DNA from: Escherichia phage ES12 | Reading direction: 5' to 3' (one strand) | Sequence record: MN508614.1 | Length of the DNA: 64,000 bases | In this document: positions 2,576-63,888 of the stretch, one piece after another | How positions within the stretch are numbered: the first letter of the stretch is position 1 | How the letters are laid out: every line of letters starts with the position of its first letter | The notes under the pieces: model-generated | The model's input: only the letters and a program-made list of their open reading frames with translations | The model's database searches: none | Told to the model about the DNA's origin: nothing | Position numbers and translations under genes: made by a program

Positions 2576-2854
2576 TCATTCGAAATAATCTTCAATTTCA
2601 TAATCAAGGACATAAATCATTATAGTTTTTAATACATCATCAATACTTTTTCCTGGAGCTGGAATTACGTAAAAATATCCTGCTTTTGAGTTATCTTTAT
2701 AAGTTCCAATCAAGAAATCATTATTCCCAAGATGTAGTTCTTCAACTAATTCATTAACAATTGAGTGATATAAATTTGGTAGAAACTTGTATAGCTTTTC
2801 TAGAATATCAATTTTGATTGTGTATTGAACCACAGATTGAGAATCAATAATCAT
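2576..2854 (-). CDS. arn: Arn, anti-restriction protein (McrBC inhibitor), acidic DNA-mimic type
   Basis: 92 aa, strongly acidic, ATG with GGAAGG SD, next to asiA as in T4. Confidence 0.7.
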   Translation of the reverse strand: MIIDSQSVVQYTIKIDILEKLYKFLPNLYHSIVNELVEELHLGNNDFLIGTYKDNSKAGYFYVIPAPGKSIDDVLKTIMIYVLDYEIEDYFE

Positions 2855-2937
2855 AGACCTTCCCCTTATGTTTCTGTTTGCGATTAGATTCTTTAAACGC
2901 TTTCTTCTTATCCTTATGGACAGAAGCTTGATTAAAA

Positions 2938-3156
2938 TTATGTTTTGCGACTAAATTGTTCATAGTGCTGAATTACCTCTCTTAAACAATTGCATGTGAA
3001 TGAAAACTTTTTAGCTACACCACATTCAAATATATGTTCTCTTAAATCACGTGTGTCAGTATATCCCATCTCAACGATAAAATGTCTTATTAAATTTTTA
3101 TCTTTATCATTAAGAGAATTAAAATAATCAGATTTTGAATTAATTTCCCTGGCCAA
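2938..3156 (-). CDS. Hypothetical protein, 72 aa (arn-motA interval)
   Basis: Minus-strand ORF in the compact early operon between arn and motA; contains CGV...CNC cysteines. Confidence 0.5.
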   Translation of the reverse strand: MAREINSKSDYFNSLNDKDKNLIRHFIVEMGYTDTRDLREHIFECGVAKKFSFTCNCLREVIQHYEQFSRKT

Positions 3157-3436
3157 ATTGAATCACCTTCAGTTGACGTTTTAATTCTTTTATCATTTCT
3201 TCGTTCATCGCAATATAAAGATCGCGTAAAGCAGGTTTTAACATTCCATTTACTGGAGAACTAAATGGACACACATAATCTTTTCCTACGAGCTTTTTGG
3301 CGAATTCCATATTACAGAACTTAAATCCCGGCTCATTGGTATAAATTCCCCAATTAGTTGACATCATTTTATTAGCATATTCCAGTGCCTGGATTTGATT
3401 CATAATTCCATCGATTTGAAACTTTTTAATATTCAT
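3140..3436 (-). CDS. Hypothetical protein, 98 aa (arn-motA interval)
   Basis: Minus-strand ORF tightly packed with neighbours (stop/start overlaps). Confidence 0.55.
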   Translation of the reverse strand: MNIKKFQIDGIMNQIQALEYANKMMSTNWGIYTNEPGFKFCNMEFAKKLVGKDYVCPFSSPVNGMLKPALRDLYIAMNEEMIKELKRQLKVIQFGQGN

Positions 3437-3900
3437 TAGTAAAGGTCCTCAGAGTAAAGTTCTTTTTCACTACCACCACGTTCAATACGTACTTGTCCAG
3501 CGTAAGTTGCAATAATCATTGCTTCTTCACGCGTCCAATAATTACTATATTGGTCAATAAACCCTTGGTCATCATCACAAACTTGTTGAGTAACTAATTG
3601 AGGTTTAACTACATCTAAAACTTCTGCCATATCTTTAGAATAATGACGAGCACCTGGAATAATAAGAGTTCGTCCATCTTTTAATTTAAAACGGTTGGCT
3701 GCGCAAACAATTCGTCGTTGATACTTTTGGTTTTCATCCCAGTATGCAGACTGCCAGCAGATTTCAGGAACTTCTTTCAGAACATCTTCTTCCGTATAAT
3801 TAGTATAACCTGCTGATTTAAATTTTTCGGCTAAACTCTCTGGAGTCTCACGAGATAATGCAACGTTTAGCATTTCAAGTCTTTCTTCAAATGTTTTCAT
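3436..3900 (-). CDS. Hypothetical protein, 154 aa (arn-motA interval)
   Basis: Minus-strand ORF; stop/start overlap with flanking ORFs indicates translational coupling. Confidence 0.6.
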
Positions 3901-4226
3901 TTAAACCATCCTTTAATACGTTGCCATAAAGTTTTCTGTTGAGCTTTGTTAACACCAATTGAACGAATAACTGGTTGAGATTCCTGGAATTCTTTATAAT
4001 CAGCAAGGTAAATTTCGTAAGCTGCATCTGTAAATGAACTTATTGCTGCCATAAAATTATTGCGAATACCTACTGGAGCATCTTTACTTTCACGAATAAT
4101 CATGTATTTACCAGTCTTAATCTTTACAATAGTTCCAAGATAAGCTCCGTGGTACCAAATGTCCCAACCCTCTTGAGTAGGTTCTGCGCAACGACGAAGT
4201 TCATTAACAATTTCTAACTTGTTCAT
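3897..4226 (-). CDS. Hypothetical protein, 109 aa (arn-motA interval)
   Basis: Minus-strand ORF directly downstream of motA. Confidence 0.6.
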
Positions 4227-13179: not shown

Positions 13180-13212
13180 TAATTATACCACATCCTTGTG
13201 GTAAAGTAAACT
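13180..13212 (-). promoter_or_regulatory. Early sigma70 promoter for the rIIA.1-rIIA-rIIB unit
   Basis: Minus-strand GTTTAC-(18 nt)-TGgTATAAT with a perfect TATAAT -10; a near-identical copy sits at 57390-57426. Confidence 0.55.
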
Positions 13213-15031
13213 ACTGGCTCATCCATTCTTTACGAAGGTCAGCATTATCTCCCATGAGCATTTCAAAAAGCTCTTTCCAATTCTCAGGAAGTTTAACAAC
13301 ATCATATACTGGGTTTTGAATCATCTCACGATATTCAGATTTTTCCAAAGAGCCAAGTCCCTTAATATAACGGATGCTATGTTTAGGTAGAGCATCTTTA
13401 GCACTCTCATATTCAGCGACTGTATAAAACCATTCTTGTTTTTTACCGACCTGAGCGATGATTACAGGAGTTTTGACGAAGCGAATTCTTCCTTGTTCAA
13501 ACAGTTCTGGCCAATTACTAAAAAATCCGAGCAGAGAAGGATAAATGCTTCCTAGACCATCATGGTCAGCATCAGTCATAATAGCGATATTATGATAATT
13601 CAAGTTTTCAGCTTTTTCACCGAGAACTAATCCAGTGATTGCGCAAATATCAAACAGTTCTTTGTTTTTAAGCATGTCAGCATATGACATACCCCAACTG
13701 TTGAGAACTTTACCACGTAATGGATAACCACCGTGAAGTTCTTTATCACGAACATCAATAAGATATCCGATAGCCGAATCACCCTCAGTCAAGAAAAGAG
13801 TAGTATCAGCATCTTTACCACAAAGATTCGCTTTAATATGTTTATGAACCTTAGCTTTAGAAGCCTTTTTAGCTGCTTTAGTTTCTGCTGCTTTTTCTGC
13901 CGCTAATTTACGAGCCAAAGCAGCTTCAATAATCGGCATTAGAATTGCTTCATTATTTAGAATAGCACGTGAAATCTTTTTAGCATCAAGTTGAATATGA
14001 CTACGGATTTCGCCAAATGGAGAAGTCAAACGCTCTTTAGTTTGAGAATCAAATCGCATGTTTTTCATATCACGGACAAACATAACGATAGTCAAACATT
14101 CTTTAACGCGTGCTTTAGTCACATCAATTTTGAACTTACGTTTGATTTGTGGAATAAGGTCTTCACAAATATCATCCATAACACAGTCAATGTGATGGCC
14201 ACCATTCTTAGTGTGAATGTTATTCACATAAGTTAATTGACGAAAACCATCCGGTGAACGACCAACCGCAATAGAGCAATTTTCTTGTTCTTGAACAATA
14301 GCATGCTCATCATATTGGCGTGCATATTTCTTAAAATTGCCCTGAACCTTTTTACCATTAAAGGTAAATTGAATATCAGGATAAACTACTGCAAGTGTCT
14401 GGAGACGATCTAGTGTAATGTCAAGATAAACTTGGGACAGCTCATTAGTTTCAAATGACATAAAATCAGGAATGAAAGTAACACGAGTTCCTTTCCATTT
14501 TCCAGGAATAGTTTCCCATGATTTATTTTCCATGCCATTTGAACAACGAACTACAATATTATTTTGACCATCACCAGTTTCACCAACAAACATCACAGAA
14601 AAAATGTTTGTCAAACTAGAACCAACACCATTCATACCGCCAGTGACACGTTCTTTATCATCGCCAAAGTTACCACCTGCTTTTGGAATAGTCCATGCAG
14701 CAACAGGACCAGGAATTTCTTCACCGGTAGGTGTTTTAACCATCGCCTGCGGAATACCACGACCGTTATCTTCAACTGTTACTTGATTGTTTTTAATAGT
14801 AACATTAATTTTATTTGCGAATTTAAACTTAGTACGAATACCTTCATCTACTGAGTTATCGATAATTTCATCAATAAGCTTAACAAGACCAGGTACATAC
14901 TGAACACTTTCCCATTTACCAAACAGAAAGCGCTCATGCATTTCATTAGCAGAAGAGCCAATATACATGCCGCTACGCTTTTTGATATGTTCAATATCGC
15001 TCAGAATTTTAATTTCATTCTTAATCATCAC
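13211..15031 (-). CDS. 39: DNA topoisomerase II large subunit, unsplit gene 39 (covers T4 gp39 plus gp60)
   Basis: 606 aa continuous ORF: N-terminal GHKL ATPase and C-terminal Toprim region ending ...LMGDNADLRKEWMSQ; no intervening ORF or bypass gap. Confidence 0.95.
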   Translation of the reverse strand: MMIKNEIKILSDIEHIKKRSGMYIGSSANEMHERFLFGKWESVQYVPGLVKLIDEIIDNSVDEGIRTKFKFANKINVTIKNNQVTVEDNGRGIPQAMVKTPTGEEIPGPVAAWTIPKAGGNFGDDKERVTGGMNGVGSSLTNIFSVMFVGETGDGQNNIVVRCSNGMENKSWETIPGKWKGTRVTFIPDFMSFETNELSQVYLDITLDRLQTLAVVYPDIQFTFNGKKVQGNFKKYARQYDEHAIVQEQENCSIAVGRSPDGFRQLTYVNNIHTKNGGHHIDCVMDDICEDLIPQIKRKFKIDVTKARVKECLTIVMFVRDMKNMRFDSQTKERLTSPFGEIRSHIQLDAKKISRAILNNEAILMPIIEAALARKLAAEKAAETKAAKKASKAKVHKHIKANLCGKDADTTLFLTEGDSAIGYLIDVRDKELHGGYPLRGKVLNSWGMSYADMLKNKELFDICAITGLVLGEKAENLNYHNIAIMTDADHDGLGSIYPSLLGFFSNWPELFEQGRIRFVKTPVIIAQVGKKQEWFYTVAEYESAKDALPKHSIRYIKGLGSLEKSEYREMIQNPVYDVVKLPENWKELFEMLMGDNADLRKEWMSQ

Positions 15032-16644: not shown

Positions 16645-17136
16645 TTATGCATAGCGAGCTTTGCTGTAGTGTTTAATCCAGCTTTCAGGAATGACTTTGT
16701 ATGTTCCTAAAAATACAACGTTGTACAACTTAACGCCATCTTCTACCCATTGATCAGTAATGTATGCACACATAGCGCGAGTACGGCGAGGAAGGGGTTG
16801 TCCACCTTCGGTAAATTCAAACTCATAAGGAGCAACGAACTTAATAGCTTGACCGAGTTTCCACTTAAAGTCTACACCTACATGCGAAGTATCAATCGTT
16901 TCAATTCCTTTAGCGGGAACAGCTTTCAAAAACGCAGGCTCAAGAAATTTCCATCGAACATAACCAAACTGAGGTTTAGACATTCCATCTTTAGGAATGA
17001 TACGCACTTTTACTTCAGAATCTTCATCTTTAACACCGTGTTTAAGCTGAATGCTTACGACTTCAACCAATTTTCCTGCTGCTTTAGAACGGGATTTATC
17101 AGATACACGAGCCAATTCACCAATATTAATAATCAT
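16645..17136 (-). CDS. motB: MotB-like protein, 163 aa
   Basis: Length and position match T4 motB; C-terminal domain is paralogous to the next ORF (ITDQWVEDGVKLYNVV). Confidence 0.55.
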   Translation of the reverse strand: MIINIGELARVSDKSRSKAAGKLVEVVSIQLKHGVKDEDSEVKVRIIPKDGMSKPQFGYVRWKFLEPAFLKAVPAKGIETIDTSHVGVDFKWKLGQAIKFVAPYEFEFTEGGQPLPRRTRAMCAYITDQWVEDGVKLYNVVFLGTYKVIPESWIKHYSKARYA

Positions 17137-17174
17137 AGTTATCTCTCACTTGTTAAAAAGATTTTATACTCCAC

Positions 17175-17212
17175 AGGACCATTATACTCTGGTCCCAAGA
17201 GTTTGTAAACTA
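17175..17212 (-). promoter_or_regulatory. Early sigma70 promoter upstream of motB
   Basis: Minus-strand GTTTAC-(18)-TATAAT. Confidence 0.5.
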
Positions 17213-17758
17213 TTAATTCAAAATAGCTACCACCGCACTACGAGGTACTACGCTAAAATCACCTGCATGAACAACGTTCAGAAGTTCAACACCATCTTCA
17301 ATCCACTGGTCTGTTACCCAACCACAGATAGGATTATCAAAAGGACGATGGATAGACACAGCAGCACACAACAGGTCTGTAGGGTCTTGTTCTTCAACTT
17401 CTTGGAACAGGATGAACTCATCTTCATAAACCAGGTTTTTCTTTATTTTGTTATTATCTAACCGGCGACCGTGGATGACGTAAGATTTATCAAACCACTC
17501 ACTTTTGGCAAATTCTTCAACAATAAATTCGCCTTCGCCAAAAACATCAGTCAGAGTTTTATGACCAGAAATCAAGGCATTAGTTTTAATTTTAGGTTCA
17601 ACCAGTTTGTAGGTTTTGCCGATTTCAATAGCGGTAGTCATAGTAGGTTCCTTAATTTCCAGTGGTTTAACAGGGCATACATAAGTGCTTACAACATCAA
17701 AATCAATCAGTTTAGCTACCGGATTTGGTATGTATTCAGGATTATAATTAAATTTCAT
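17213..17758 (-). CDS. MotB paralogue, 181 aa (motB.1 position)
   Basis: C-terminal VTDQWIEDGVELLNVV block parallels the motB-like ORF. Confidence 0.6.
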   Translation of the reverse strand: MKFNYNPEYIPNPVAKLIDFDVVSTYVCPVKPLEIKEPTMTTAIEIGKTYKLVEPKIKTNALISGHKTLTDVFGEGEFIVEEFAKSEWFDKSYVIHGRRLDNNKIKKNLVYEDEFILFQEVEEQDPTDLLCAAVSIHRPFDNPICGWVTDQWIEDGVELLNVVHAGDFSVVPRSAVVAILN

Positions 17759-21369: not shown

Positions 21370-22116
21370 TTATCCTCGGATAAGTTTAAAAATTGAACAA
21401 TTTAGCGGGTATCCTCTTTTCAGTTTAAGTTTATCAATAAAAGACAAATTTTGATACCGCTCTACACCTTGAATAATTTTATCACACATATCATATTGCA
21501 TTTCTGCTTCTGACAGCTTTTTCACAATTTTCCAATCCGAGCCTTTAAGAAGAACGTTCAATTTAACAACTTCAGCGCCTTCTGCTATGCGAGAACCATC
21601 AATACGTGCTTTAAGTGCTATAATCCTTAGCTTAATGTCAGAGGTCTGTTTTGATTTAGAAAGCTGAGAAATGTGTTCAATTCGGTTTTCACGTTTTTTC
21701 TGTATAGCTTTAATTTGATTATAAGTCTTTTTGATTTTAGCCCATTTCTTTTCATCTAAATTTAGTTTATGAACTTTTTTCGCAGATGAACGACCAATTC
21801 GCAAAGCAAATAAATCACGCTTTTCAATCAACTCTTCTAAAGTATAATCAGAACGAAATGTATTATACTTTTTCTTTACTGCAATAACATTCCCTTTAAT
21901 GTATCCAACGTTATTATCAAAACGTTCTAATGATAATTTCTCTCCTTCAATACGATTATCAAAAGGTTCTCCCGAGTAAGCACAAACTTTTTGATCTAAA
22001 ATGTTCTTAATGTAATTGAAGTCTAAGTTAAAATCTTTAGAACGTCTTTTTGCAGATGCCTGAGTATGCTCTAGACGACGTTTAATTTTACGAATTTGGT
22101 TATTAGACAGCTTCAT
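21370..22116 (-). CDS. srd: Srd (sigma-70-like; reported RNase E activator)
   Basis: 248 aa basic protein at the T4 srd position between modA/B and dda. Confidence 0.7.
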   Translation of the reverse strand: MKLSNNQIRKIKRRLEHTQASAKRRSKDFNLDFNYIKNILDQKVCAYSGEPFDNRIEGEKLSLERFDNNVGYIKGNVIAVKKKYNTFRSDYTLEELIEKRDLFALRIGRSSAKKVHKLNLDEKKWAKIKKTYNQIKAIQKKRENRIEHISQLSKSKQTSDIKLRIIALKARIDGSRIAEGAEVVKLNVLLKGSDWKIVKKLSEAEMQYDMCDKIIQGVERYQNLSFIDKLKLKRGYPLNCSIFKLIRG

Positions 22117-22149
22117 ATTTTTCTCACATCTTACGGACGGTTAACTACT

Positions 22150-22185
22150 TATACTATAACATTTTTACCTTAACTTGTAAACAAC
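22150..22185 (-). promoter_or_regulatory. Early promoter upstream of srd
   Basis: Minus-strand GTTTAC-(18)-TATAGT with AT-rich UP region. Confidence 0.4.
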
Positions 22186-22238
22186 TTTATGAAAAATGCT
22201 TTAAAACTTTCATGGTATAATGAATCTAAGTCCTTCCA

Positions 22239-22841
22239 TTATAGATTAAATCCTTCAAAATCAAGAGTATAGATAGTGTATGTTGAATACTTTTTATACT
22301 CGTATCTATCCGCAATTCTAAATACACTTCCAGCTGGTATCATTACTTCTTGTTCATCTGAAACTAATTCCATATTACGATAGCGATGGCTATCCGGAAA
22401 CTTAAAGTTTGGATTGTATTCTTTACAGCGTAGAGCTTTTATAGCATACTCCTGGAAATTAAACACCATAGGAGCTTTGAATTCAAAAATAACTTGTGTG
22501 TTGTATTCTAATCCAGAAGCAAAATGTAGAGCTATATTTTTATCATATGAAGCTGATACTACTTTATCAAATGTAATAATATCAATTCCTTGATTTAACA
22601 CCTGTTTAGTCTCAACTGGAACACCTCTCCAAAGAGGTTTATCGTTTGGAACCAAACGAGATTTGACTATTTCATTTAACCAAGAATGATCGTCTGGTTT
22701 ATTAGTAATACAATGAATTAAAAGTTCAATTTCAGATAAATTAAATCCTTCAGAAAGTAATTCTTCACGAATAGAAGCACGCACCGATGCATCCATTGAT
22801 TTGATTTTAAAATCTTTTAATTGCATTGCTGAATATTTCAT
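22239..22841 (-). CDS. modA: ADP-ribosyltransferase ModA
   Basis: 200 aa with R (LWRG), S-x-S (SAS) and E-x-E (EQEVMIP) motifs; modA/modB assignment is by length only. Confidence 0.65.
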   Translation of the reverse strand: MKYSAMQLKDFKIKSMDASVRASIREELLSEGFNLSEIELLIHCITNKPDDHSWLNEIVKSRLVPNDKPLWRGVPVETKQVLNQGIDIITFDKVVSASYDKNIALHFASGLEYNTQVIFEFKAPMVFNFQEYAIKALRCKEYNPNFKFPDSHRYRNMELVSDEQEVMIPAGSVFRIADRYEYKKYSTYTIYTLDFEGFNL

Positions 22842-23461
22842 TCAACTACCTCAATATCATACACTTTAAATGTTCCAAATGAATCGTGTAATTTTTCTTT
22901 TGAAATAGAAGTTATTCTATACTTTCCAATTGGAATCATCCATTCTTGTTCACGCACAATCATCATTAAGTTATCAGTACGCTCTGAATCTAATCCATCA
23001 GTATCTTCATATGTATACTTAAATTCAGTATTAGGAGAAGAAAGTATAATATCGCTGATATGGTCAGAATAATTAAAAGCTTTATCAGTTTTTAAGCGAA
23101 ATATTATTTCAGTGAAATACTCAACATAAGAAAAACCACATGCTGTGTGCAAACTAGTAGTAAATGAATCTACTCTGTTCGTTGAAAACACTTCTCCGAC
23201 TTGTAAATCTTTAATGAGTTCTTTTGTCGATTTTGATATACCACGATATAGCTGATAAGGCGATTTAGTTAAATGCTTTTTAACGATTTTATTCAACTGC
23301 CGATGAAGAGCTTCATTCTTTTTGGCTTCTATACACTGCCAAAGAACTGACTGTTCAAAGTCAGTAAATTTTTCACAGACCTTTTTATACATATCATATT
23401 GAAAATCAACGCTTTCAGCTTTTATAGATAACTGTTCAACATCTGCAGGATTAATAATCAT
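22838..23461 (-). CDS. modB: ADP-ribosyltransferase ModB
   Basis: 207 aa paralogue with R (LYRG), STS-like and EQEWMIP motifs; overlaps the next gene by 4 nt. Confidence 0.65.
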   Translation of the reverse strand: MIINPADVEQLSIKAESVDFQYDMYKKVCEKFTDFEQSVLWQCIEAKKNEALHRQLNKIVKKHLTKSPYQLYRGISKSTKELIKDLQVGEVFSTNRVDSFTTSLHTACGFSYVEYFTEIIFRLKTDKAFNYSDHISDIILSSPNTEFKYTYEDTDGLDSERTDNLMMIVREQEWMIPIGKYRITSISKEKLHDSFGTFKVYDIEVVE

Positions 23462-23484
23462 GATAGCCTCCGTATACTTCAGAA

Positions 23485-23520
23485 GCTATCATATCATCGT
23501 TAGAAAGGAAAGTAAACAAC
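23485..23520 (-). promoter_or_regulatory. Early promoter upstream of the modB-modA unit
   Basis: Minus-strand GTTTAC-(18)-TATGAT. Confidence 0.4.
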
Positions 23521-23528
23521 TTTTTGAA

Positions 23529-23711
23529 TTATTTTGTCCAGGGAGCCCAAGGCGGAGGGTCAAGATGGTATGAAGCTAGTTCTTCTAGAAGAGCATCTGG
23601 GGCTTCAATTCCATAATTCTGTAATACTATACGGTACTCTTTCTTATAATCACTAGAATCATTCTGGATATTCGTAGAATGATTATCTTCTAACATCTCA
23701 AATAAATCCAT
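23529..23711 (-). CDS. Hypothetical acidic protein, 60 aa
   Basis: Minus-strand ORF in the modB-soc interval. Confidence 0.45.
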   Translation of the reverse strand: MDLFEMLEDNHSTNIQNDSSDYKKEYRIVLQNYGIEAPDALLEELASYHLDPPPWAPWTK

Positions 23712-25941: not shown

Positions 25942-26151
25942 TTAAATTACATGATTATTTATAATAAATTCTCGCGGAACGTTAAAATACCCGATTTTAG
26001 TTAATATAACAACATCGCCGTTAATAATTACCGGAGAATAATCTTCTGGAGCATTAAATTTCCAATGGGCTCTAATATTATATCCATCAGAACCAAATGC
26101 TCGCGTAGCTGGTCTCCCAGCTTTTTGCCATGCGTAGAAATCAAATTTCAT
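25942..26151 (-). CDS. Hypothetical protein, 69 aa
   Basis: Minus-strand ORF between gene 56 and soc. Confidence 0.5.
   Translation of the reverse strand: MKFDFYAWQKAGRPATRAFGSDGYNIRAHWKFNAPEDYSPVIINGDVVILTKIGYFNVPREFIINNHVI
25956..25963 (-). promoter_or_regulatory. Late promoter (TATAAATA) for soc
   Basis: Exact TATAAATA on the minus strand about 30 nt upstream of the soc ATG, followed by AAAGGAG SD. Confidence 0.5.
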
Positions 26152-26342
26152 TTTGAATGCTCTATAATTAATTTTAAAGCTTCTTCACTGACAAAAATTT
26201 CGTCAGGACCTTCTATAACTTCAACCATACGAAGTTGATTAGTTAAGAGCTCACATACGAGCTCCTTGTTATAATCTTTAAATAGCTGGTCAATACGTTT
26301 CTTGTGGGCTTTCTTAAGCTGGCGTTTATTTAAACGAGCCAT
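26148..26342 (-). CDS. Hypothetical basic protein, 64 aa
   Basis: Minus-strand ORF overlapping the gene 56 stop. Confidence 0.5.
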   Translation of the reverse strand: MARLNKRQLKKAHKKRIDQLFKDYNKELVCELLTNQLRMVEVIEGPDEIFVSEEALKLIIEHSK

Positions 26343-26860: not shown

Positions 26861-26931
26861 TATTTTTCCTTTCAATTCATGGGTTAGTAGATTAATTATA
26901 CAATAAATATATAAAGCAATAAGGAGGACAT

Positions 26932-32575: not shown

Positions 32576-33424
32576 TTAATCAACTGCTATTGGATGAATA
32601 GCATTAAACTTATGAAATGCTTCTGATTTTTCTTTACGTGAAACGCACATGCGAAGAACCTTTAATGGCTCGTCTTCTTCACCCAACGATTTTCGTTTTT
32701 CAATATTCGACGTTTTCCAACGAGCTTGCTCTGGAAACTCTCTATTGATTTGCTCAAGCGCTCTATTATGTTTAGAATTACTACGAATTGAACTACACCC
32801 ACCAGGAGCTTGCGCTTTTCCAGATACAACCAGATATTTGAACAAGGCCAAATGCGGATAACCTTGATTAATTAAATTGAGAAATGCATACATATCTTCG
32901 CACAAATCAATTTTTCCATACCCAATTTGTTCTGTCGTAAGTTTTCCGAGGTCATACCATGTATTCGTGAATCCATATGAATTTTCACGATAATTACCCC
33001 AAGATGAAGTAATTTTAAAAATTGGTAGACGAGCATGGCCATGATAATACCCGCAATCCATGGCATCCTCAACATATTGAATCAATTCATAGAACTGTTC
33101 ACGAGTCAATTGATTGACTTTATCTACACAACGACGGTCATCTCTTTTTCGCATTGAACTCATACGAATAGTAGTATCATCGTCAATCATCCAGATTCGT
33201 TGACCTGCATACATATCAGTAATTGCTTTACGAGTACCGGCAATTCCGTTTACATCATCAGGAATAGTTATAATTTTAGCTCTAGACCCATAGGCATCAT
33301 AATAAGCTTTTTCTTCATGTTCACGCACTATAATATGCGGTTCATAATCAGTCGGAAACATATCAAGGGCAGAAACTGCCCCTACACGCTGATAACTTGG
33401 AATTACGAATTGAATCATTTCCAC
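32576..33424 (-). CDS. DxD-motif glycosyltransferase at the beta-gt locus (candidate beta-glucosyl-HMC-alpha-glucosyltransferase)
   Basis: 282 aa with IWMIDDDTT; occupies the uvsX-42 interval where T4 has the 351-aa beta-gt. Confidence 0.6.
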   Translation of the reverse strand: MEMIQFVIPSYQRVGAVSALDMFPTDYEPHIIVREHEEKAYYDAYGSRAKIITIPDDVNGIAGTRKAITDMYAGQRIWMIDDDTTIRMSSMRKRDDRRCVDKVNQLTREQFYELIQYVEDAMDCGYYHGHARLPIFKITSSWGNYRENSYGFTNTWYDLGKLTTEQIGYGKIDLCEDMYAFLNLINQGYPHLALFKYLVVSGKAQAPGGCSSIRSNSKHNRALEQINREFPEQARWKTSNIEKRKSLGEEDEPLKVLRMCVSRKEKSEAFHKFNAIHPIAVD

Positions 33425-45030: not shown

Positions 45031-46233
45031 TTATTTTGTAATAATGTCAAACTGTTCTTTAAAGCAGAAGCTTGAATCTTGATGCTGATACAAAAATTCA
45101 TAAGCTTTTTCGCGTTCACGGTCATAAAGAGTTCGGTCAGATGACAGTTCTTTAATACGTTCAAATGTTGATTCCATGTCATTTTCATCAAACCAAATGA
45201 TACCGCTATCATGTGAGGTCAAAGGAGTATTATCAACACGGAATTTTAAATTTTCGCCAGTAGATTTCCAAAATACCGGAATTGTTCCACATGCACCAAG
45301 CTCGAGATGAGTATATTCTAAAGAACGTTGTAGATATTTTTTGTCCAACTTACTCAGCTGATAACCAAATCCGGATTTACTCATGCGTTCAAGCATTTCG
45401 CTATTTACATAACGGTCAAGAATTTGCGTTGGCAAATTAGGAGCAATTTTAATTTGGTCTACTTGATGAAGACGATAATACTCGTATGGAATTCCTTTTT
45501 CTTTAATAGGAATGAACGCTGGAGAACGTTCCAGACCTTCCATAATAGTACTTAGTCCTGCAGGTTTAAGATGTTTTTCGTGAAAATCAAACATCTGATA
45601 AAAACCTTTCCATGTAGTCGTACGACCAATCCAACGGTTGACATTCATGTTAATTTCAGAAACATCTTTCCAGTAGGTTGACCGAACCTTCGCAATATCC
45701 ATAGGAGGCTGAAAGTTATATACTGTCGGTGCTTCTTCAATATCATCAAACAGAGAAACAGTTTCTGGATACCATTCTTTCATCAGAACTTTATTAAAAT
45801 CACCATTATCAGAATGGCTAAAAATAACATCAGCTCGACGAACAGTTTCTTCTAATCCCAAATTTCGACGCAAAGAAAGAGAAGAATGGTCATGCTGATA
45901 AACTACAACACGAACCGAAGGTTTAATGTTATCAATAATTTTTTTATAGTTATTAATAGTGTCTTCTTCAACCGAAGTAGCAGGAACTGAATTGATAATT
46001 AGAATATCACAATCATTTACCAGCTTAAGTGTTTTATCATATTCTTTTGCCAATAAAACCGGAATTGAAAATGATTTATAATCATGCGCGCAATTACGAG
46101 TAAATGATTTATCTTTAGCATAAACCAAAGTCACTTCATGACCATTTTTAATAAACCAATCACGTTGCTCGAGTGAGAATTTTGTTACACCACAACCTTC
46201 AAGACCTCGAGCCATAAAAATACATACTTTCAT
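45031..46233 (-). CDS. a-gt: DNA alpha-glucosyltransferase
   Basis: 400 aa, ...CIFMARGLEGCGVTKFSLEQRDWFIKNGHEVTLVYAKDKSF... matches remembered T4 AGT. Confidence 0.95.
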   Translation of the reverse strand: MKVCIFMARGLEGCGVTKFSLEQRDWFIKNGHEVTLVYAKDKSFTRNCAHDYKSFSIPVLLAKEYDKTLKLVNDCDILIINSVPATSVEEDTINNYKKIIDNIKPSVRVVVYQHDHSSLSLRRNLGLEETVRRADVIFSHSDNGDFNKVLMKEWYPETVSLFDDIEEAPTVYNFQPPMDIAKVRSTYWKDVSEINMNVNRWIGRTTTWKGFYQMFDFHEKHLKPAGLSTIMEGLERSPAFIPIKEKGIPYEYYRLHQVDQIKIAPNLPTQILDRYVNSEMLERMSKSGFGYQLSKLDKKYLQRSLEYTHLELGACGTIPVFWKSTGENLKFRVDNTPLTSHDSGIIWFDENDMESTFERIKELSSDRTLYDREREKAYEFLYQHQDSSFCFKEQFDIITK

Positions 46234-46244
46234 TTAATATCCTC

Positions 46245-46296
46245 TTTGTTTTGGTTTATTTTACCAAAAATTTATAAAGCAATATAGGAGCCGAAG
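46245..46296 (-). promoter_or_regulatory. Terminator hairpin plus MotA-box middle promoter for a-gt
   Basis: Minus-strand RNA UAGGAGC-UUCG-GCUCCUA, then TTGCTTTA-(12)-TAAAAT and SD AAGAGGA. Confidence 0.45.
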
Positions 46297-50575: not shown

Positions 50576-51046
50576 TTAATCATGTGTCCACACCCCATCG
50601 GTATTTGACCAAAGTCGCTGATTATCTGATCCTCGCCACAGCTTTTTGGTCGGAAGATTTTTCTCATACTTCCCATCAATAATAACATCAACATATTTAA
50701 GCATTTCTAGTTGTTTAATATCTTCAAACTTATATCCTGTCCACAACCAAATGCTTTTATTGGGATAAAGATTTTTAATAGTTTGAACCACAGAGTGAAT
50801 CACGTCTCTGTTATCAGGATAGAGAGGGTCACCTCCGGTTATAGTCAATCCTTCTATATAATCATTATTCAAACATTCAATTAATTGTTCTAGTGTTTCA
50901 CCAGTGAATGGAACACCATTTCTAGCATTCCATGTTGATTTATTATAACACCCTTCACATTTATGCAAACAACCTGTAACGAAAAGAACGGTCCTGCAGC
51001 CAGGACCATTAACAAAATCGCAAGGATAAAATCTATCATAATTCAT
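50576..51046 (-). CDS. nrdG: Anaerobic ribonucleotide reductase activase NrdG (radical SAM)
   Basis: 156 aa, CxxxCxxC cluster (GCLHKCEGCYNK). Confidence 0.9.
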   Translation of the reverse strand: MNYDRFYPCDFVNGPGCRTVLFVTGCLHKCEGCYNKSTWNARNGVPFTGETLEQLIECLNNDYIEGLTITGGDPLYPDNRDVIHSVVQTIKNLYPNKSIWLWTGYKFEDIKQLEMLKYVDVIIDGKYEKNLPTKKLWRGSDNQRLWSNTDGVWTHD

Positions 51047-52860
51047 TGGTGCTTAACCCTATGCATGATTTCTTTATTTTTGCCGAGATTAAATCCGCGT
51101 TCGTTCGGATTTCCCAAATAACCACATGTTCTTCTTATTGTGTTCATCTTTTTAGGATCAGTTTCTCCACAAATAGAACAAACAAATCCGTTTTCAGTAG
51201 GAGTCATTTCATGGGTACTTCCACATGTAAAACATTTATCTACTGGCATATTAACACCAAAATAATCTAAATGTTGTGCAGCATAATCCCAGACAGCCTC
51301 AAGACCTTTTAGGTTATTTTTCATATCAGGAAGTTCAACATAAGAAATGTGACCACCTGTCGCAATGAAATGATATGGGGCTTCGCGAGAAATCTTTTCA
51401 AACGGAGTAATATTTTCTTCTACTGAAACATGGAAACTATTAGTGTACCAGCCTTTATCAGTAACATCTTTTACACTTCCATATTTTTCAGTATCAAGTT
51501 TACAGAAGCGATAACAAAGGTTTTCAGCGGGAGTAGAATACAAGCTAAAAGCAAAACCGGTTCTTTCAGTCCACTGTTTAAGACGAGCATTCATTTTAGT
51601 TAAAATTTCCTGTCCAATATCACGACCGACAAGAATATTCAATTCGTGAATACCAATGTATCCTAGGGACACTGAACTTCTACCGTTTTTAAATAACTCA
51701 ATTATGTCGTCATCAGGTTTAAGACGAACCCCGAATGCACCTTCTTGGTAAAGAATAGGAGCAACAGTCGCTTTAACTCCTTTTAATGAACTAATTCTAC
51801 ACATCAAAGCTTCAAAACATAAATCCATTCGCTCATTGAACAATTCGATAAATTTCTGTTCATTGAACTGTGTTCCAATATAAGAATCTAATGCGATACG
51901 AGGAAGATTCAGTGTTACAACACCAAGATTATTACGTCCATCAAGAATTTCATTACCAGTCGAATCTTTCCATACGCTCAAGAAACTACGGCAACCCATC
52001 GGAGAAACAGGAATAGATGAACCGGTGATAGCTTTATTGTTCTTAGCTGAAATAATATCAGGATACATTCTTTTGCTTGCGCACTCTAGAGCAAGCTGCT
52101 TAATATCATAGTTCGGATCGTCTTTATAAAGATTAACACCTTCTTCAACAAACATAACAAGCTTAGGGAAAATAGGAGTTATCCCATCACGACCAAGACC
52201 TTTAATACGATTTTTCAGAATTGCTTTCTGAATCATTCGTTCAGTCCAGTCAGTTCCCGTACCAAATGTAATTGTTACAAAAGGCGTTTGTCCGTTTGAA
52301 CTAAAGAGAGTGTTTACTTCATATTCATAAGCTTGAAATGCATCGTATACGTCTTTTTCTGTTTTAGATTGAGCATAATTCAACGCATCAGCGATTTGCC
52401 ATTTTTCTGCATCCTCAATATGTTTTGCATAGGTGCGTTTAACATAAGGAGAAAGTACTTTATCTACATTCGCAAAAGTCGTTCCGCCGTATTGATGGGA
52501 AGCAACTTGCGCAGTAATTTGCGCCATAATTGCAGTAGCAACGCCAATTGATTTAGGAGTTTCAATCTGTGCATTACCAAGCTTAAATCCGTTTTCAAGC
52601 ATTCCTTTTAAATCTACTAAACAACAATTAGTAAATGGAAGAGCAGGGGAATAATCAATATCATGGAAATGAATAATTCCGCTTTCATGCGCTTTCATAA
52701 TAAAAGACGGGACCATATTTTTGGCAATGTGTTTAGACACAATACCAGCCATAAGGTCCCGTTGAGTTGGAAAAACACGAGAATCTTTATTAGCATTCTC
52801 GTTTAAAAGGTCTTTATTAGTTTTATGAATCAATCCTTCAATTTCTTTTTCAATTGTCAT
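51043..52860 (-). CDS. nrdD: Anaerobic ribonucleotide reductase NrdD, uninterrupted
   Basis: 605 aa continuous ORF with C-terminal glycyl-radical motif RRTCGYLGNP and a Cys zinc site. Confidence 0.95.
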   Translation of the reverse strand: MTIEKEIEGLIHKTNKDLLNENANKDSRVFPTQRDLMAGIVSKHIAKNMVPSFIMKAHESGIIHFHDIDYSPALPFTNCCLVDLKGMLENGFKLGNAQIETPKSIGVATAIMAQITAQVASHQYGGTTFANVDKVLSPYVKRTYAKHIEDAEKWQIADALNYAQSKTEKDVYDAFQAYEYEVNTLFSSNGQTPFVTITFGTGTDWTERMIQKAILKNRIKGLGRDGITPIFPKLVMFVEEGVNLYKDDPNYDIKQLALECASKRMYPDIISAKNNKAITGSSIPVSPMGCRSFLSVWKDSTGNEILDGRNNLGVVTLNLPRIALDSYIGTQFNEQKFIELFNERMDLCFEALMCRISSLKGVKATVAPILYQEGAFGVRLKPDDDIIELFKNGRSSVSLGYIGIHELNILVGRDIGQEILTKMNARLKQWTERTGFAFSLYSTPAENLCYRFCKLDTEKYGSVKDVTDKGWYTNSFHVSVEENITPFEKISREAPYHFIATGGHISYVELPDMKNNLKGLEAVWDYAAQHLDYFGVNMPVDKCFTCGSTHEMTPTENGFVCSICGETDPKKMNTIRRTCGYLGNPNERGFNLGKNKEIMHRVKHQ

Positions 52861-56365: not shown

Positions 56366-57367
56366 TTACTTAATTAACTGTAAAGCTTGTTCAAGACGAT
56401 CCAGGCGATTAACAGATTCTTCCCAAATCCTTTTAGCCTGCTCATATTCTTTCTGCGCTTTATTAGAAATTTCTAGAACTTCTTTATAAGCTTTTTCTAG
56501 TGCAATAACTTCTGGACGAATTTCTACCGGTTCAGGTGAATCATCAAGACATTCCATTAGTTCCTCAAGGGTAGTTTCTTCTTTAGGAGTATTCACAATT
56601 TCATCACATTTTTGTTGGTAAATTTCTTTACTAGTAGGTGAATAAGTACATTTCACTTCACGAAGACTAACTACAATTTTATATCCTTCCCAACCGCATA
56701 TATTCTTAAAAGGATATGTATGAATATTTTCTACTGTTTCCATACAAAGTAATGCGGTCTCTAATTGACGAGTTATAGTGCTAGCAATTGAGAAAAATTT
56801 ATTAATGTTCTTTTGGTTAGTTTCTGGTGTAAAAAATCCATAATTCACAAAAATAGCTACTTTATTTTTATCAAGTTCATATTCTTTTATGATAATCATA
56901 TCAGAAGCCAAAGGATGAATTTGACGATAATCGCCATAACATAATTTAGAAGCTGATTTTAGAATTTGCTTCTTGAAAAGTCTGAAATTACTAATCCAAC
57001 GACGAGTAAAAATATTCTCAGGGTCTTCTTTATTATTGAGATGATAAGAATTAACATCACCGAACCAATTATATCCTACTACATCTTTAGTTCGTTTAAT
57101 TTCTTTCCCAAAATTACCAAGAATATCCCGATTAACCAAATATGAAAGAAGACGAGACTCTTTAAAGGTTTTCTTGATAACATCTTTATCTACACGGCTA
57201 GAAATTTTACGAATTTCATGAATAAATTTAGTAGAAGAAACAATACTTGCATCAACACTATTGAGCCATTGATTGATAATAGAAAGAACGATATTTTGAC
57301 CAAACATCGGTATAGCTTTATCATCAATAACGCTATTGAATGATTTGATATATTCGTTACGAGTCAT
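56366..57367 (-). CDS. Paralogue B of the four-member tandem family, about 333 aa
   Basis: Start at MTRNEYIKSF with GAGGAG SD; central FRLFKKQILKSASKL helix; coiled-coil tail. Confidence 0.6.
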   Translation of the reverse strand: MTRNEYIKSFNSVIDDKAIPMFGQNIVLSIINQWLNSVDASIVSSTKFIHEIRKISSRVDKDVIKKTFKESRLLSYLVNRDILGNFGKEIKRTKDVVGYNWFGDVNSYHLNNKEDPENIFTRRWISNFRLFKKQILKSASKLCYGDYRQIHPLASDMIIIKEYELDKNKVAIFVNYGFFTPETNQKNINKFFSIASTITRQLETALLCMETVENIHTYPFKNICGWEGYKIVVSLREVKCTYSPTSKEIYQQKCDEIVNTPKEETTLEELMECLDDSPEPVEIRPEVIALEKAYKEVLEISNKAQKEYEQAKRIWEESVNRLDRLEQALQLIK

Positions 57368-57389
57368 AATAATCTCCTCAGTAGAAAGT

Positions 57390-57426
57390 AAGAACATTAT
57401 ACCACATCCTTGTGGTAAAGTAAACT
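57390..57426 (-). promoter_or_regulatory. Early sigma70 promoter between paralogues C and B
   Basis: Minus-strand GTTTAC-(18)-TGgTATAAT, near-identical to the copy at 13180-13212. Confidence 0.5.
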
Positions 57427-58444
57427 AGTTCAGTGCATTTAATGCATTGTTCAGTTTAGAACGTTGCTTCGTGAGATTTTTGACTTTTTCTTGTGCTTTT
57501 TCTAGCATCTTTTCAGCTTCTAACACTTCATTGGTCGCTTTAACGAGTTCATCATCTACTGCCTTAAGGGACTTCTCAATCGCATCCGCGTGCCATTTTT
57601 CAACAGGTTTAAGACTCGGATTTTCAATAGGAAGAAAATTCACTTTATTGAATTTCCATGCATCTTTATTACCTGAACTATACATCCAAAATTTAGGATC
57701 ATTTGACGAGTAATTAGATAAATTTAAGGTATCTTGTACTTCCTGCTTTTTCTCTTGTGTAACTTCGTCCTTTCTCAAAAAATCGTATTTAAATGAAACG
57801 ATCATATCAAGTTCATATGTTGTTGTGTCTAATTTAAATCGTTCGAAATGCTGTGAAATCTTAGACTGAACTGCAGCAACAACATCCATATACTTAAATG
57901 CTTCTGTCAGCTGTGATTTAAGGCATTCACAAATTGAAAGAGAATTTTTTGTATTAGGTTTAAAGCTAATTCGTGCAGTTCTATTATTTTCTTTTAATGG
58001 TCTTACTTCCATCTGAAGAGTATAACCATCAAATTTCAGATTCTTTAAGTTAATATCAGAGCCTTTTAATCGACTAGCCGTCGACAAAATTTGCTTTAAT
58101 TGTTTACGGAATAGAGCAATAAATCTCCACTCAAGACGATAATGATTTGGATTAAAAAATCCAGATGATAAATCGACCTTACTCTGACCAACACCTTGAA
58201 CAAACAGAGGATTTTTATAATCAATAGTTTTACAGAAATCGGTGAGCTGCTCACGAGCAGTCATTTGTGTAATATACCCCGCTTTACTAAAATGACGTAA
58301 CCATTCACTGCTATTCATATATTTAAAGTGAATATCACGATTAACTTTATCAGGGTCTAAATTATTTTCACACAAAAATGTCATAACATCACGAGTATAG
58401 CTGGCATTACGAACCATATCTTCAATTTGAGAACGAGTTTTCAT
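57425..58444 (-). CDS. Paralogue C of the four-member tandem family, 339 aa
   Basis: Central FIALFRKQLKQILSTASRLK helix; tail ...ATNEVLEAEKMLEKAQEKVKNLTKQRSKLNNALNALN. Confidence 0.6.
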   Translation of the reverse strand: MKTRSQIEDMVRNASYTRDVMTFLCENNLDPDKVNRDIHFKYMNSSEWLRHFSKAGYITQMTAREQLTDFCKTIDYKNPLFVQGVGQSKVDLSSGFFNPNHYRLEWRFIALFRKQLKQILSTASRLKGSDINLKNLKFDGYTLQMEVRPLKENNRTARISFKPNTKNSLSICECLKSQLTEAFKYMDVVAAVQSKISQHFERFKLDTTTYELDMIVSFKYDFLRKDEVTQEKKQEVQDTLNLSNYSSNDPKFWMYSSGNKDAWKFNKVNFLPIENPSLKPVEKWHADAIEKSLKAVDDELVKATNEVLEAEKMLEKAQEKVKNLTKQRSKLNNALNALN

Positions 58445-58452
58445 GGTGTTCC

Positions 58453-59361
58453 TTAAGATTTAAGTAAATCAACAATTTTAATTAACTTTTCACGCTCAGA
58501 TTTAGCTTTACTACTCAATCCAGATAGTCTGAAAATTTCATCATCATATTGTTGAATAGAAATATTCAGCTCTTCAATTTGCTCATTAAAATAATCAATT
58601 TGCTCAGAATGTTTTTCGTTACTACGAACTGGTACAGGTTTTGTAGGTAATTTAGATGAACTGGATTCATCCGGGCGATAAATTAAAATACAACTTGAAC
58701 CAATTGGACATTTTGCACCAGATGAATATTCTAACGTTCCAGCTTCTTTTAAAACTTCAAAAGCTAAACAGAGATGATGCCCCATATTAACATAATCTGT
58801 AGAGCGAGCTCTGATATAATAATCATCGCCGCGAATACTAAATTTAAAGCATTTAAGGTCTTCTGTATTATTGGTCTTAAAAATCATTTGTTTATCTAGA
58901 CCTTTAGCTAATCGAGCGCCTAATGCTAATAATCGTCGTTGATTTTCCCACAAATCTGCGATCATTTGGTCAAATGATAATTTCGGCATTAATCGACCAT
59001 AAAGGTCATATCCTTTATTATAATTGCGAAGGATTTCACTCGCATTAATACGAGACAACGCTCCAATTTTATTAAGGGCTTTCATGATGCGATTAGATAA
59101 ACCCATTCCAGACCCGTTTGTTCGTTGTAAATGTTTATCTAATCCAAACCCAATATCAACTTTAAATTTATCTAAAATTTCAGCATGAACATCTCTGTCA
59201 ATAACATTCAAATCCAAAGTTGGGTTAAATCTATGAAAAAATTTATCTGGCTCTCCACGACGAAGTACAGTCCATTCATTCAATTTTTTATTAACTAAAG
59301 ATTTAATTACTGCATTGACATTATTAATTACTACTGACATATTTTCCTCACTCAATTTCAA
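58453..59361 (-). CDS. Paralogue D of the four-member tandem family, 302 aa
   Basis: Central RRLLALGARLAKGL helix; tail ...EQIEELNISIQQYDDEIFRL...EREKLIKIVDLLKS. Confidence 0.6.
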   Translation of the reverse strand: MKLSEENMSVVINNVNAVIKSLVNKKLNEWTVLRRGEPDKFFHRFNPTLDLNVIDRDVHAEILDKFKVDIGFGLDKHLQRTNGSGMGLSNRIMKALNKIGALSRINASEILRNYNKGYDLYGRLMPKLSFDQMIADLWENQRRLLALGARLAKGLDKQMIFKTNNTEDLKCFKFSIRGDDYYIRARSTDYVNMGHHLCLAFEVLKEAGTLEYSSGAKCPIGSSCILIYRPDESSSSKLPTKPVPVRSNEKHSEQIDYFNEQIEELNISIQQYDDEIFRLSGLSSKAKSEREKLIKIVDLLKS

Positions 59362-59755
59362 TTTTACTAAATATACAGAATAAGATGGAACAGACTATAT
59401 AAACACCACACACAGATTGAACTAATACCATTCCAAAGAACCAAACAATATTATCAAACAATGTCTGTTTTACGTCGAAAGGACGTAAACTTACAGTAAT
59501 ATTATCGCCTTTTTCTATTGATGAATACATCTCTGGTGAAATATATTCGCTAAATCTATAACCGTCTTTGAGTTCATATACAGCAATAAACGATAAACTA
59601 GACCCCTTTCCTTGAGTTCCTGTAAAGGTATTAACTACAGTAACATCATAATCTTTATAATGCATATAATCATTAATTGCGTAATAACCATATGCAACTA
59701 CTACACATAAACAACATATCAATAAATTCAATCTTTTAATTATCAACTGTTTCAT
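59348..59755 (-). CDS. Membrane protein, 135 aa
   Basis: N- and C-terminal TM helices; overlaps the paralogue D start by 14 nt. Confidence 0.55.
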   Translation of the reverse strand: MKQLIIKRLNLLICCLCVVVAYGYYAINDYMHYKDYDVTVVNTFTGTQGKGSSLSFIAVYELKDGYRFSEYISPEMYSSIEKGDNITVSLRPFDVKQTLFDNIVWFFGMVLVQSVCGVYIVCSILFCIFSKIEIE

Positions 59756-59769
59756 AATAATCTCAATTA

Positions 59770-59805
59770 AAAGGGCTTAGAACCATTATACCATCCTTGG
59801 TATAA
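59770..59805 (-). promoter_or_regulatory. MotA-box middle promoter
   Basis: Minus-strand CGCTTTA-(12)-TGgTATAAT. Confidence 0.4.
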
Positions 59806-59810
59806 AGCGG

Positions 59811-60338
59811 TTATGCGAGTACCGTCTTTAACCGTTCTTCAAACTTCCGAAGAGTATTTTGGCGTTCAGCTCTTTGCTTTTTGTAAGTTTCAATACGCTC
59901 TGAAATGAGAGTGTATCGTTCATTTACTGATTCTTTCATAAAATCAGGAATTTCACGAGAAGCTTTAATCTCATCAAATTTATCAATAACAGCTTGCTCT
60001 TCAGCAATTAAGTTATCATACATCAAAATATCTTTCTTGATGAACTCAATATCTTCTTGAGTTACACGAGATAATTTAGATGCTTTATCCTTTTTGTACT
60101 GTTCGTTAGTATCACGAGACCAGTGTAATGTACGATTTTTATTCGTATTCTTGTAAATTTCTACAATACCAATCTCATCGATAATAACGATCCAATTCCA
60201 ACGAGATTTGTAAATTTGTCCTCCGTCAACCACGATTTCACCTCCGATTGAGATGTCATTAAAGAACTTGCTTTGTGCTTCAGATTTAAATTTACCATCA
60301 TTGTAGTTTACCAAGTTGAAAATATCTTTAGCATTCAT
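59811..60338 (-). CDS. Hypothetical protein, about 175 aa
   Basis: Start at MNAKDIFNLVNYND after the promoter leader; the track ORF reads through the promoter. Confidence 0.55.
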   Translation of the reverse strand: MNAKDIFNLVNYNDGKFKSEAQSKFFNDISIGGEIVVDGGQIYKSRWNWIVIIDEIGIVEIYKNTNKNRTLHWSRDTNEQYKKDKASKLSRVTQEDIEFIKKDILMYDNLIAEEQAVIDKFDEIKASREIPDFMKESVNERYTLISERIETYKKQRAERQNTLRKFEERLKTVLA

Positions 60339-60359
60339 TTTTGTTCCTCCGTAGTTGAT

Positions 60360-60397
60360 AGTTGTATAGTACCACAGAGGAATGGTCTTGTAAACCA
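60360..60397 (-). promoter_or_regulatory. Early promoter cassette
   Basis: Minus-strand GTTTAC-(18)-TGgTACTAT with GGAGGAACAAAAATG leader. Confidence 0.5.
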
Positions 60398-60712
60398 CTA
60401 AAAGAAACTTCTTTCACAATTTTTTCCACTGAACCAAGCGCTCACTGCTTTCTTAGTCTCAGGAGCAGTGTTATCCATAAACCATTCAAAAGCAGCCTTT
60501 TTATGATTCTGGAGGGCTTCTCGGGCTTTAATCTGCTCACGGTCTATTAACACTAACATATGAGCCTTTCTTGTCACCAAGGGCTTCTTATGATTCTTGG
60601 AGTATTCCCAGTCATTTGTCCAACGCATTGTCGTTGCGAACTGATGAACCGCGTCTTTAATTTTAGTTTCGTAAATTTCACGAGCCTTTGAGTATAACAT
60701 CACTACCTCCAT
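60398..60712 (-). CDS. Hypothetical protein, 104 aa
   Basis: Minus-strand ORF downstream of the AAA+ ATPase gene. Confidence 0.55.
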   Translation of the reverse strand: MEVVMLYSKAREIYETKIKDAVHQFATTMRWTNDWEYSKNHKKPLVTRKAHMLVLIDREQIKAREALQNHKKAAFEWFMDNTAPETKKAVSAWFSGKNCERSFF

Positions 60713-60801
60713 TTACCAGTTTAATTCTAATCATCTTTTTGATGGCAGTCCATATAATCTATTTCTGAACTGCCTTTTTGTCATAGAAGGCCTCTTATGA
60801 A

Positions 60802-61770
60802 TTATTTCAGAAGAGTAACCTCAGCGATTTCTTCCCAACCGTTTTTGTCGGTCATAATAAAGTCAGCAAGATAAAGTGCAGTACGCAGTGAAACATTGCG
60901 TAAACGATTAACATTGACTTTCATCCATGATAATGCTTTATAAGTTTCTTCATCAGAAAGACCGCGTTTTTGCATCATGTCAGTTGAAAGAATAACATCT
61001 TCAACCCTGACCATAATTTCTTCATTAGTGTGAACACCCAAATCTAAATAAACTGAGCGGGACACTAATGCTTGTAAATGTGGAGCAAGTTTAGTACCAC
61101 GGTCTAATTCGCGGTCAATGTCAACGTTTGTGATAAAAACAATCGTTCCTTTAAATTCAAACTCACGCTCAATGCCTTTTTCTTCTAAGTAAGAAGATGC
61201 AGTGCTCCAGCAGACTTTACGGGTCTCTCCAGTGTCCAGAGCAGCTTTCAGAAGATTAAGAATGTCCATATCAGAGAAAACATCCACATCATCAATCAAA
61301 AGGACAGAATTCTCTTCACGATTATTCCAAAGCTGCTCATAAAGACCAATACCAGAGATTTTACCATTAATGCTTTTATATTCAATGTATCCAATATCAT
61401 TTGCTTTATTTAAAGCTTTATCTAAAGAATACGTTTTACCAATACCTGCTGCGCCAGAGATAATTAATGAACGAATATTTCCGTTAATAATACCATTCGT
61501 CATCATTCCCATAACATTAAATCTTTTATTAATGCGGGTTTTCATATCTTCATACGATTCTTTAACTTCTTCAACTTTTACACCATCATATGAAATGTCT
61601 GATTTGTAAACCCAAACACCGCGACGCTTACCGTCAATTTCAACAAAAACTTTACCATCTCCTTGTGCATCTACCGGAGCATTATCTGGGAACCATTCAC
61701 CTAAGAGCTCAAAAGTTCCAGAGATTTCTTTACCGAAGTAGATACCCTTATTGATAGTTACAGTTTTCAT
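60802..61770 (-). CDS. AAA+/P-loop ATPase, about 322 aa
   Basis: Start at MKTVTINKGIYFGK after the promoter leader; Walker A GAAGIGKT, Walker B VLLIDDVD, sensor-1-like FITNVD. Confidence 0.65.
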   Translation of the reverse strand: MKTVTINKGIYFGKEISGTFELLGEWFPDNAPVDAQGDGKVFVEIDGKRRGVWVYKSDISYDGVKVEEVKESYEDMKTRINKRFNVMGMMTNGIINGNIRSLIISGAAGIGKTYSLDKALNKANDIGYIEYKSINGKISGIGLYEQLWNNREENSVLLIDDVDVFSDMDILNLLKAALDTGETRKVCWSTASSYLEEKGIEREFEFKGTIVFITNVDIDRELDRGTKLAPHLQALVSRSVYLDLGVHTNEEIMVRVEDVILSTDMMQKRGLSDEETYKALSWMKVNVNRLRNVSLRTALYLADFIMTDKNGWEEIAEVTLLK

Positions 61771-61799
61771 TTTATTCTCCAAATCCGTATCAGTTGATA

Positions 61800-61850
61800 G
61801 TTGTATAGTACCACAGTATGCTTTGGTTGTAAACCGTTTTGTGAAAAAAA
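61800..61850 (-). promoter_or_regulatory. Early promoter cassette
   Basis: Minus-strand AAAAATTTTTTTCACAAAACGGTTTAC-(18)-TGgTACTAT; about 60 nt near-identical to 5250-5300. Confidence 0.5.
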
Positions 61851-61866
61851 TTTTTGAAATAAAAAA

Positions 61867-61885
61867 GGGAGCCCGAAGGCTCCCT
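61867..61885 (-). terminator. Rho-independent terminator after the NTase-fold gene
   Basis: Minus-strand RNA GGGAGCC-UUCG-GGCUCCC followed by UUUUUUAUUU. Confidence 0.55.
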
Positions 61886-61886
61886 A

Positions 61887-63358: not shown

Positions 63359-63360
63359 AA

Positions 63361-63882: not shown

Positions 63883-63888
63883 ATTTCC

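Follow-up and report, generated by a model that had tools for sequence, protein, structure and literature searches.

The modA-modB locus

The window analysed here comprises 64,000 nucleotides of Escherichia phage ES12 (MN508614.1). At 22239 to 23461 the initial annotation had placed two adjacent genes encoding proteins of 200 and 207 aa, and both ORFs can indeed be found there on the minus strand. The features of the locus are as follows:

22239..22841, minus strand: modA coding sequence (200 aa; predicted NAD+--arginine ADP-ribosyltransferase)
22838..23461, minus strand: modB coding sequence (207 aa; predicted NAD+--arginine ADP-ribosyltransferase)
22838..22841, minus strand: ATGA shared by the modB stop and the modA start (from ORF coordinates and sequence)
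22153..22181, minus strand: candidate early-type promoter before srd (TTTACA, 17 nt, TG-TATAGT), in the 122-bp gap 3' of modA
23488..23516, minus strand: candidate sigma-70 promoter of the T4 early type before modB (TTTACT, 17 nt, TG-TATGAT), identical in T4
23459..23493, minus strand: predicted RNA hairpin, with the -10 box region as its 5' arm and the modB Shine-Dalgarno sequence GGAGG plus ATG as its 3' arm

A GAGG motif can be read from the sequence inside modB, 8 nt 5' of the modA ATG. Together with the ATGA overlap, it is compatible with putative translational coupling of modB and modA, for which this arrangement is typical. The gene order in the window (dda, dda.1, srd, modA, modB, modA.2, modA.3, modA.4, srh, mrh) is that of T4, and the ORF sizes near the pair (dda, 439 aa; dda.1, 103 aa; srd, 248 aa; modA.2, 60 aa; modA.3, 156 aa) also match T4. 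In the T4 annotation, modA (200 aa) lies between srd and modB, and modB (207 aa) lies between modA and modA.2, which are the positions occupied here; modA and modB are annotated in the same way in Shigella phage Sf21.

The region from 22100 to 23600 is 100% identical to that of Escherichia phage ES26 and shares at least 90% identity with 502 phage records, nearly all of them from T4-like phages of Escherichia, Shigella and Yersinia. Sequence similarity thus places the window in a Tequatrovirus (T2/T4-like) genome.

Differences from T4 elsewhere in the window

We compared the window with T4 up to the start of its last 7.5 kb (56453-64000). The large subunit of topoisomerase II is encoded by a single 606-aa ORF (13211-15031, minus strand). 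The T4 split of genes 39 and 60, with its 50-nt translational bypass, is absent, as are 60.1 and mobA, and T4 positions 2794-3910 correspond to 64 bp here. The homing-endonuclease genes mobB and mobC (46224-46249 and 51026-51046, respectively) and, at 52322-52325, the nrdD group I intron with I-TevII do not occur at the sites that they occupy in T4, and the 64-kb stretch carries fewer mobile elements than T4. The gene segF is also absent at 25942-26342 (minus strand), where two small ORFs (69 and 64 aa, matching PHROG head/virion proteins) lie between soc and gene 56. In the interval between gene 56 and gene 61 (26900-26921), there is no counterpart of T4 dam, and T4 16825-17725 is reduced to approximately 20 bp.

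A 282-aa beta-glucosyl-HMC-alpha-glucosyltransferase (PHROG 842, E 7e-89) is encoded at 32576-33424 (minus strand), where T4 instead has segA and beta-glucosyltransferase; this gene implies that DNA glucosylation is probably of the T2/T6 (gentiobiosyl) type and not of the T4 type. Positions 1-1459, which precede the holin gene t and correspond to the site of the tail-fibre genes 37 and 38 in T4, gave no blastn match to the T4 stretches compared, among them T4 genes 34-38, and this region likely holds a divergent receptor-binding module.

Assignment of the two ORFs to ModA and ModB

The 200-aa protein is identical to T4 ModA (NP_049635) at 196 of 200 positions (98%, full length), and the 207-aa protein to T4 ModB (NP_049636, UniProt P39423) at 196 of 207 positions (95%). 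The identity between the 200-aa protein and T4 ModB is only 27%. The initial annotation had assigned the names by length only, which left room for a swap in which the 200-aa protein would be ModB and the 207-aa protein ModA. The chance of such a swap is negligible, since the T4 comparisons (98% and 95% against 27%) refute it and the positions of the two genes relative to srd and modA.2 are those of T4. The length-based naming is therefore correct. The two window proteins are 29% identical to each other over 182 aa with an E value of 2e-17, so that they are genuine paralogues and not similar by chance, in agreement with their earlier description as tandem paralogues.

Four substitutions separate T4 ModA from the protein encoded here (V5A, I59V, A76V and C185Y); R72, S96-A97-S98 and E163-Q164-E165 are kept. 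The 11 substitutions from T4 ModB are L5P, M44I, K54R, H55Q, E58K, I60V, S109G, A113V, T119I, L121F and K182R, and the T4 residues R73/G74, S99 and E171-Q172-E173 are all retained. The alignment with T4 ModA and ModB that had been proposed as a check on the annotation thus involves no loss of the catalytic Glu or Arg residues.

A tblastn search with ModB found relatives in 1009 phage records. Among the 40 records listed, each Tequatrovirus record has two matching places, which is consistent with a modA-modB pair; in more distant Straboviridae (phages of Klebsiella, Enterobacter, Salmonella and Aeromonas) there are one or two copies, and their identity is 30-38%. We also observed a recurrent public protein cluster of 40 members (P0005) that consists of a C-terminally truncated, 157-aa ModA without the E-x-E region; in one source it is entered as a hypothetical protein of E. 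coli. This cluster could reflect a naturally occurring knockout allele of modA, or a bacterial assembly contaminated with phage sequence.

Family membership and catalytic residues

Both proteins match PHROG 832, 'RNA polymerase ADP-ribosylase' (E 4e-33 for ModA and 1.5e-41 for ModB). In Pfam-A, neither protein matched an ADP-ribosyltransferase model, PF03496 included, even at E<=1, and neither reached the gathering threshold of PF03496 (ADPrib_exo_Tox). The only Pfam-A match was that of ModB to PF10436, a chance match (E 0.075; 13.3 bits against a 24-bit cutoff). NCBIfam returned zero matches for the two proteins, and single-sequence searches of PDB sequences returned zero relatives. Because of these results from Pfam-A, NCBIfam and PDB sequences, we turned to predicted structures and to a profile built for the family.

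A word-indexed homologue search yielded three and then nine relatives, and an exhaustive HMMER profile search of 1.84 billion representatives retrieved 54 clusters (50% identity) at E<=0.001, a number that points to a narrow, phage-restricted family. The weakest profile matches are giant polyvalent proteins and small proteins with Pfam ADPrib_exo_Tox and ART domains. The Mod proteins form a family of their own, represented by PHROG 832 and by PF26816, which is a precomputed database annotation on all cluster members. The pair is placed in this family by its matches to PHROG 832, by the profile and by its predicted fold rather than by a curated Pfam threshold.

In the family alignment (n=47 members, with identities down to approximately 20%), the only invariant columns, the start Met aside, are R73, G74, S99, E171 and E173 in ModB numbering, which are equivalent to R72, G73, S96, E163 and E165 in ModA. 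These columns are untouched by any of the four ModA or 11 ModB substitutions, and the entire catalytic apparatus is intact in both proteins. The initial annotation had described an R / S-x-S / E-x-E triad in each of them. All of the strings that it quoted are present: LWRG (aa 70-73), SAS (96-98) and EQEVMIP (163-169) in ModA, and LYRG (71-74), STNRVDSFTTS (93-103) and EQEWMIP (171-177) in ModB. The S-x-S description holds for ModA, but the ModB motif is S-x-T. The invariant S96/S99 columns settle the motif Ser as that of S96-A97-S98 in ModA and S99-F100-T101 in ModB. We rejected S93-T94-N95 as the ModB motif, since its columns are not conserved and S99 is invariant.

The codons of the key residues, which were read by hand against the window DNA, are all on the minus strand:

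ModA: R72, 22626-22628; S96-A97-S98, 22548-22556; E163-Q164-E165, 22347-22355 (E163, 22353-22355; E165, 22347-22349)
ModB: R73, 23243-23245; S99-F100-T101, 23159-23167 (S99, 23165-23167); E171-Q172-E173, 22943-22951 (E171, 22949-22951; E173, 22943-22945)

A degenerate copy is frequent among tandem paralogues, and the truncated ModA of cluster P0005 is a public example of a Mod protein that lacks the E-x-E region. One of the two window genes could on these grounds be regarded as catalytically dead, a decayed paralogue whose only role would be that of a decoy or binding protein. We consider this very improbable. Both ORFs are full length and retain R, G, S, E and E, and the proteins share 95-98% identity with the T4 pair, each member of which shows enzyme activity in vitro.

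The 47-member profile also aligned with the NAD+--arginine ADP-ribosyltransferase Vis (E 2.4e-4), with YRG placed over YRG, tSfS over TSTS and dEkEwm over KEAEVL. Weaker profile alignments covered the E-x-E regions of XopAI, Lmo0066, ExoT, SpvB and a PAAR-linked ADP-ribosyltransferase toxin.

Predicted fold and relationship to R-S-E toxins

AlphaFold2 models computed from 11-sequence alignments were confident, with a pLDDT of 91.9 and a pTM of 0.84 for ModA, and a pLDDT of 88.4 and a pTM of 0.83 for ModB. Each model begins with four helices, after which comes a mixed core. The catalytic Arg lies in the first core strand, predicted at 70-73 in ModA (R72) and 71-74 in ModB (R73). The Ser motif is in a predicted strand (95-98 in ModA, 98-101 in ModB) that is followed by a helix, and the E-x-E of the ARTT loop is at the entry to a later core strand in both models. 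Relative to ModA, ModB has an acidic insertion of seven residues (approximately aa 149-156), which is the sole low-confidence part of its model.

In Foldseek comparisons with the PDB, the best 50 matches listed for each model were exclusively ADP-ribosyltransferase toxins and effectors of the R-S-E clade, namely Plx2A, Vis, iota Ia, CDTa, C2-I, Certhrax, C3 exoenzymes, VIP2, HopU1, XopAI and Tre1-like toxins. The E values were approximately 1e-5 (down to 5.5e-6) with a probability of 1.00, and the TM scores of approximately 0.4-0.55 are moderate, with a high full-length rmsd. As modelled, ModA and ModB both have the features by which the R-S-E clade is recognised: the beta-1 Arg, an S-T-S-type motif, the E-x-E and the fold. 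The conserved residues, the Vis motif alignment and the predicted folds agree in supporting the earlier view that both proteins are ADP-ribosyltransferases.

The predicted fold and the order and register of the motifs are shared with Vis, C3, iota Ia/CDTa/C2-I/VIP2, Certhrax and Plx2A, although sequence identity to these toxins is only 10-19% and the relation to PF03496 is visible only at the profile and fold level. Vis is described in the literature as arginine-specific, like the Mod enzymes. The toxins are secreted, whereas the Mod proteins are intracellular early phage proteins directed at host transcription and translation, and they have no translocation or binding domain.

Predicted activities of ModA and ModB in ES12

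T4 ModA and ModB have been characterised since the 1990s. The pair described here is almost certainly orthologous to T4 modA and modB, and encodes two mono-ADP-ribosyltransferases with arginine specificity, which are small (approximately 23-24 kDa) and belong to the R-S-E (cholera-toxin/C3-like) clade. This assignment is based on synteny, sequence identity, the conserved motifs and the predicted fold, and the activities and targets in ES12 are those that would be expected by analogy with T4.

Early promoters of the sigma-70 type would direct the synthesis of both enzymes early in infection. The beta-1 Arg (R72 in ModA, R73 in ModB) would bind NAD, and catalysis would also depend on S96 or S99 in the S-x-S/T motif and on the Glu pair of the E-x-E in the ARTT loop (E163/E165, E171/E173). 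T4 ModA brings the ADP-ribosylation of Arg265 to completion on the two RNA polymerase alpha subunits, and its expression is toxic (PMC2988021, PMC3014915); its ES12 orthologue would likewise use NAD+ to modify Arg265 of both subunits. T4 ModB targets the translation proteins S1, EF-Tu and trigger factor (PMC3014915), and, with NAD-capped RNA as its substrate, it links RNA chains to S1 and L2 (PMC10468400). By analogy, ES12 ModB would ADP-ribosylate S1, EF-Tu and trigger factor, and would also accept NAD-capped RNA, such that whole RNA chains are joined to S1 and L2 (RNAylation).

The requirement for these residues in T4 is documented by published mutants. The ModB R73A/G74A double mutation abolishes both ADP-ribosylation and RNAylation, and phage carrying it have a smaller burst and delayed lysis (PMC10468400), while ModA E165A is inactive in vivo (PMC11404850). 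A passage in a preprint, citing Tiemann 2004, calls ModB R73 (NAD-binding) and E173 essential (bioRxiv 10.1101/2025.07.11.664405). The residues concerned (ModA E165; ModB R73, G74 and E173) are all present in the window proteins. A third T4 ADP-ribosyltransferase, Alt, belongs to the same class as ModA and shares its main target, Arg265 of RNA polymerase alpha (PMC3014915, PMC2988021), but is injected with the DNA. Alt also differs from ModA and ModB in being much larger and packaged in the head, and in having its gene elsewhere in the genome.

The ModB proteins of ES12 and T4 could be true orthologues that nonetheless differ in function, if the 11 substitutions shift the target range or the preference for NAD-RNA. 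The substitutions cluster in the N-terminal helices (aa 44-60) and past the S-x-T motif (aa 109-121), and ModB is less conserved relative to T4 than ModA is (95% against 98%). What determines efficient RNAylation by ModB and not by ModA is, moreover, treated as an open question in the discussion of PMC10468400. We nevertheless consider such a shift very unlikely. Most of the substitutions are conservative (K/R, I/V, L/F, A/V), none falls in an invariant column, and the same variants are common among approximately 500 Tequatrovirus records, in which best-match ModB identities range from 90 to 99%.

Candidate promoters and a predicted hairpin at the modB ribosome-binding site

The candidate promoter before srd delimits the modB-modA pair on its downstream side, and the 122-bp gap in which it lies differs from T4 by a single base. 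A promoter consensus scan was not enriched over shuffled sequences (13 observed against 10.1 expected), and we therefore infer promoter function only from position and conservation. We accepted both candidates only because of where they lie, their TG extension and how closely they match T4.

The RNA hairpin predicted at the start of modB has 14 pairs and a folding energy of -22.3 kcal/mol (z -3.3), and only one of 200 shuffles was as stable. An RNA that starts at approximately 23481, about 7 nt past the -10 box, would be without the 5' arm; its folding energy is -3.2 kcal/mol, which leaves it with almost no structure there, and its ribosome-binding site is predicted to be open. T4 has the identical hairpin, and Sf21 has G-U in place of G-C at one pair of the stem.

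These observations raise the possibility, about which we have more doubt than confidence, that the hairpin gates translation: the ribosome-binding site would be open, and translation efficient, only on transcripts from the modB promoter itself, while those reading through from early promoters further upstream would leave modB silent. If modA is coupled to modB via the ATGA overlap, it would be silenced in the same way on read-through transcripts. Our literature search on the modB hairpin returned general reviews only, and we found no description of modB gating in the papers searched. Hairpins arranged in this manner at ribosome-binding sites are a classic T4 theme for other genes. If gating does occur, the hairpin would restrict how much of these two cell-toxic enzymes is made, and when.

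Implications

The modA-modB pair is already known; these are textbook phage genes, and a near-identical allele is present in hundreds of sequenced Tequatroviruses. The analysis fixes the annotation of the locus as to which ORF encodes ModA, which one encodes ModB and where the motif Ser lies. ModB is of current interest since it joins NAD-capped RNAs to ribosomal proteins, and natural ModB variants, such as the one described here with its 11 substitutions, could help to map the determinants of this RNA attachment activity.
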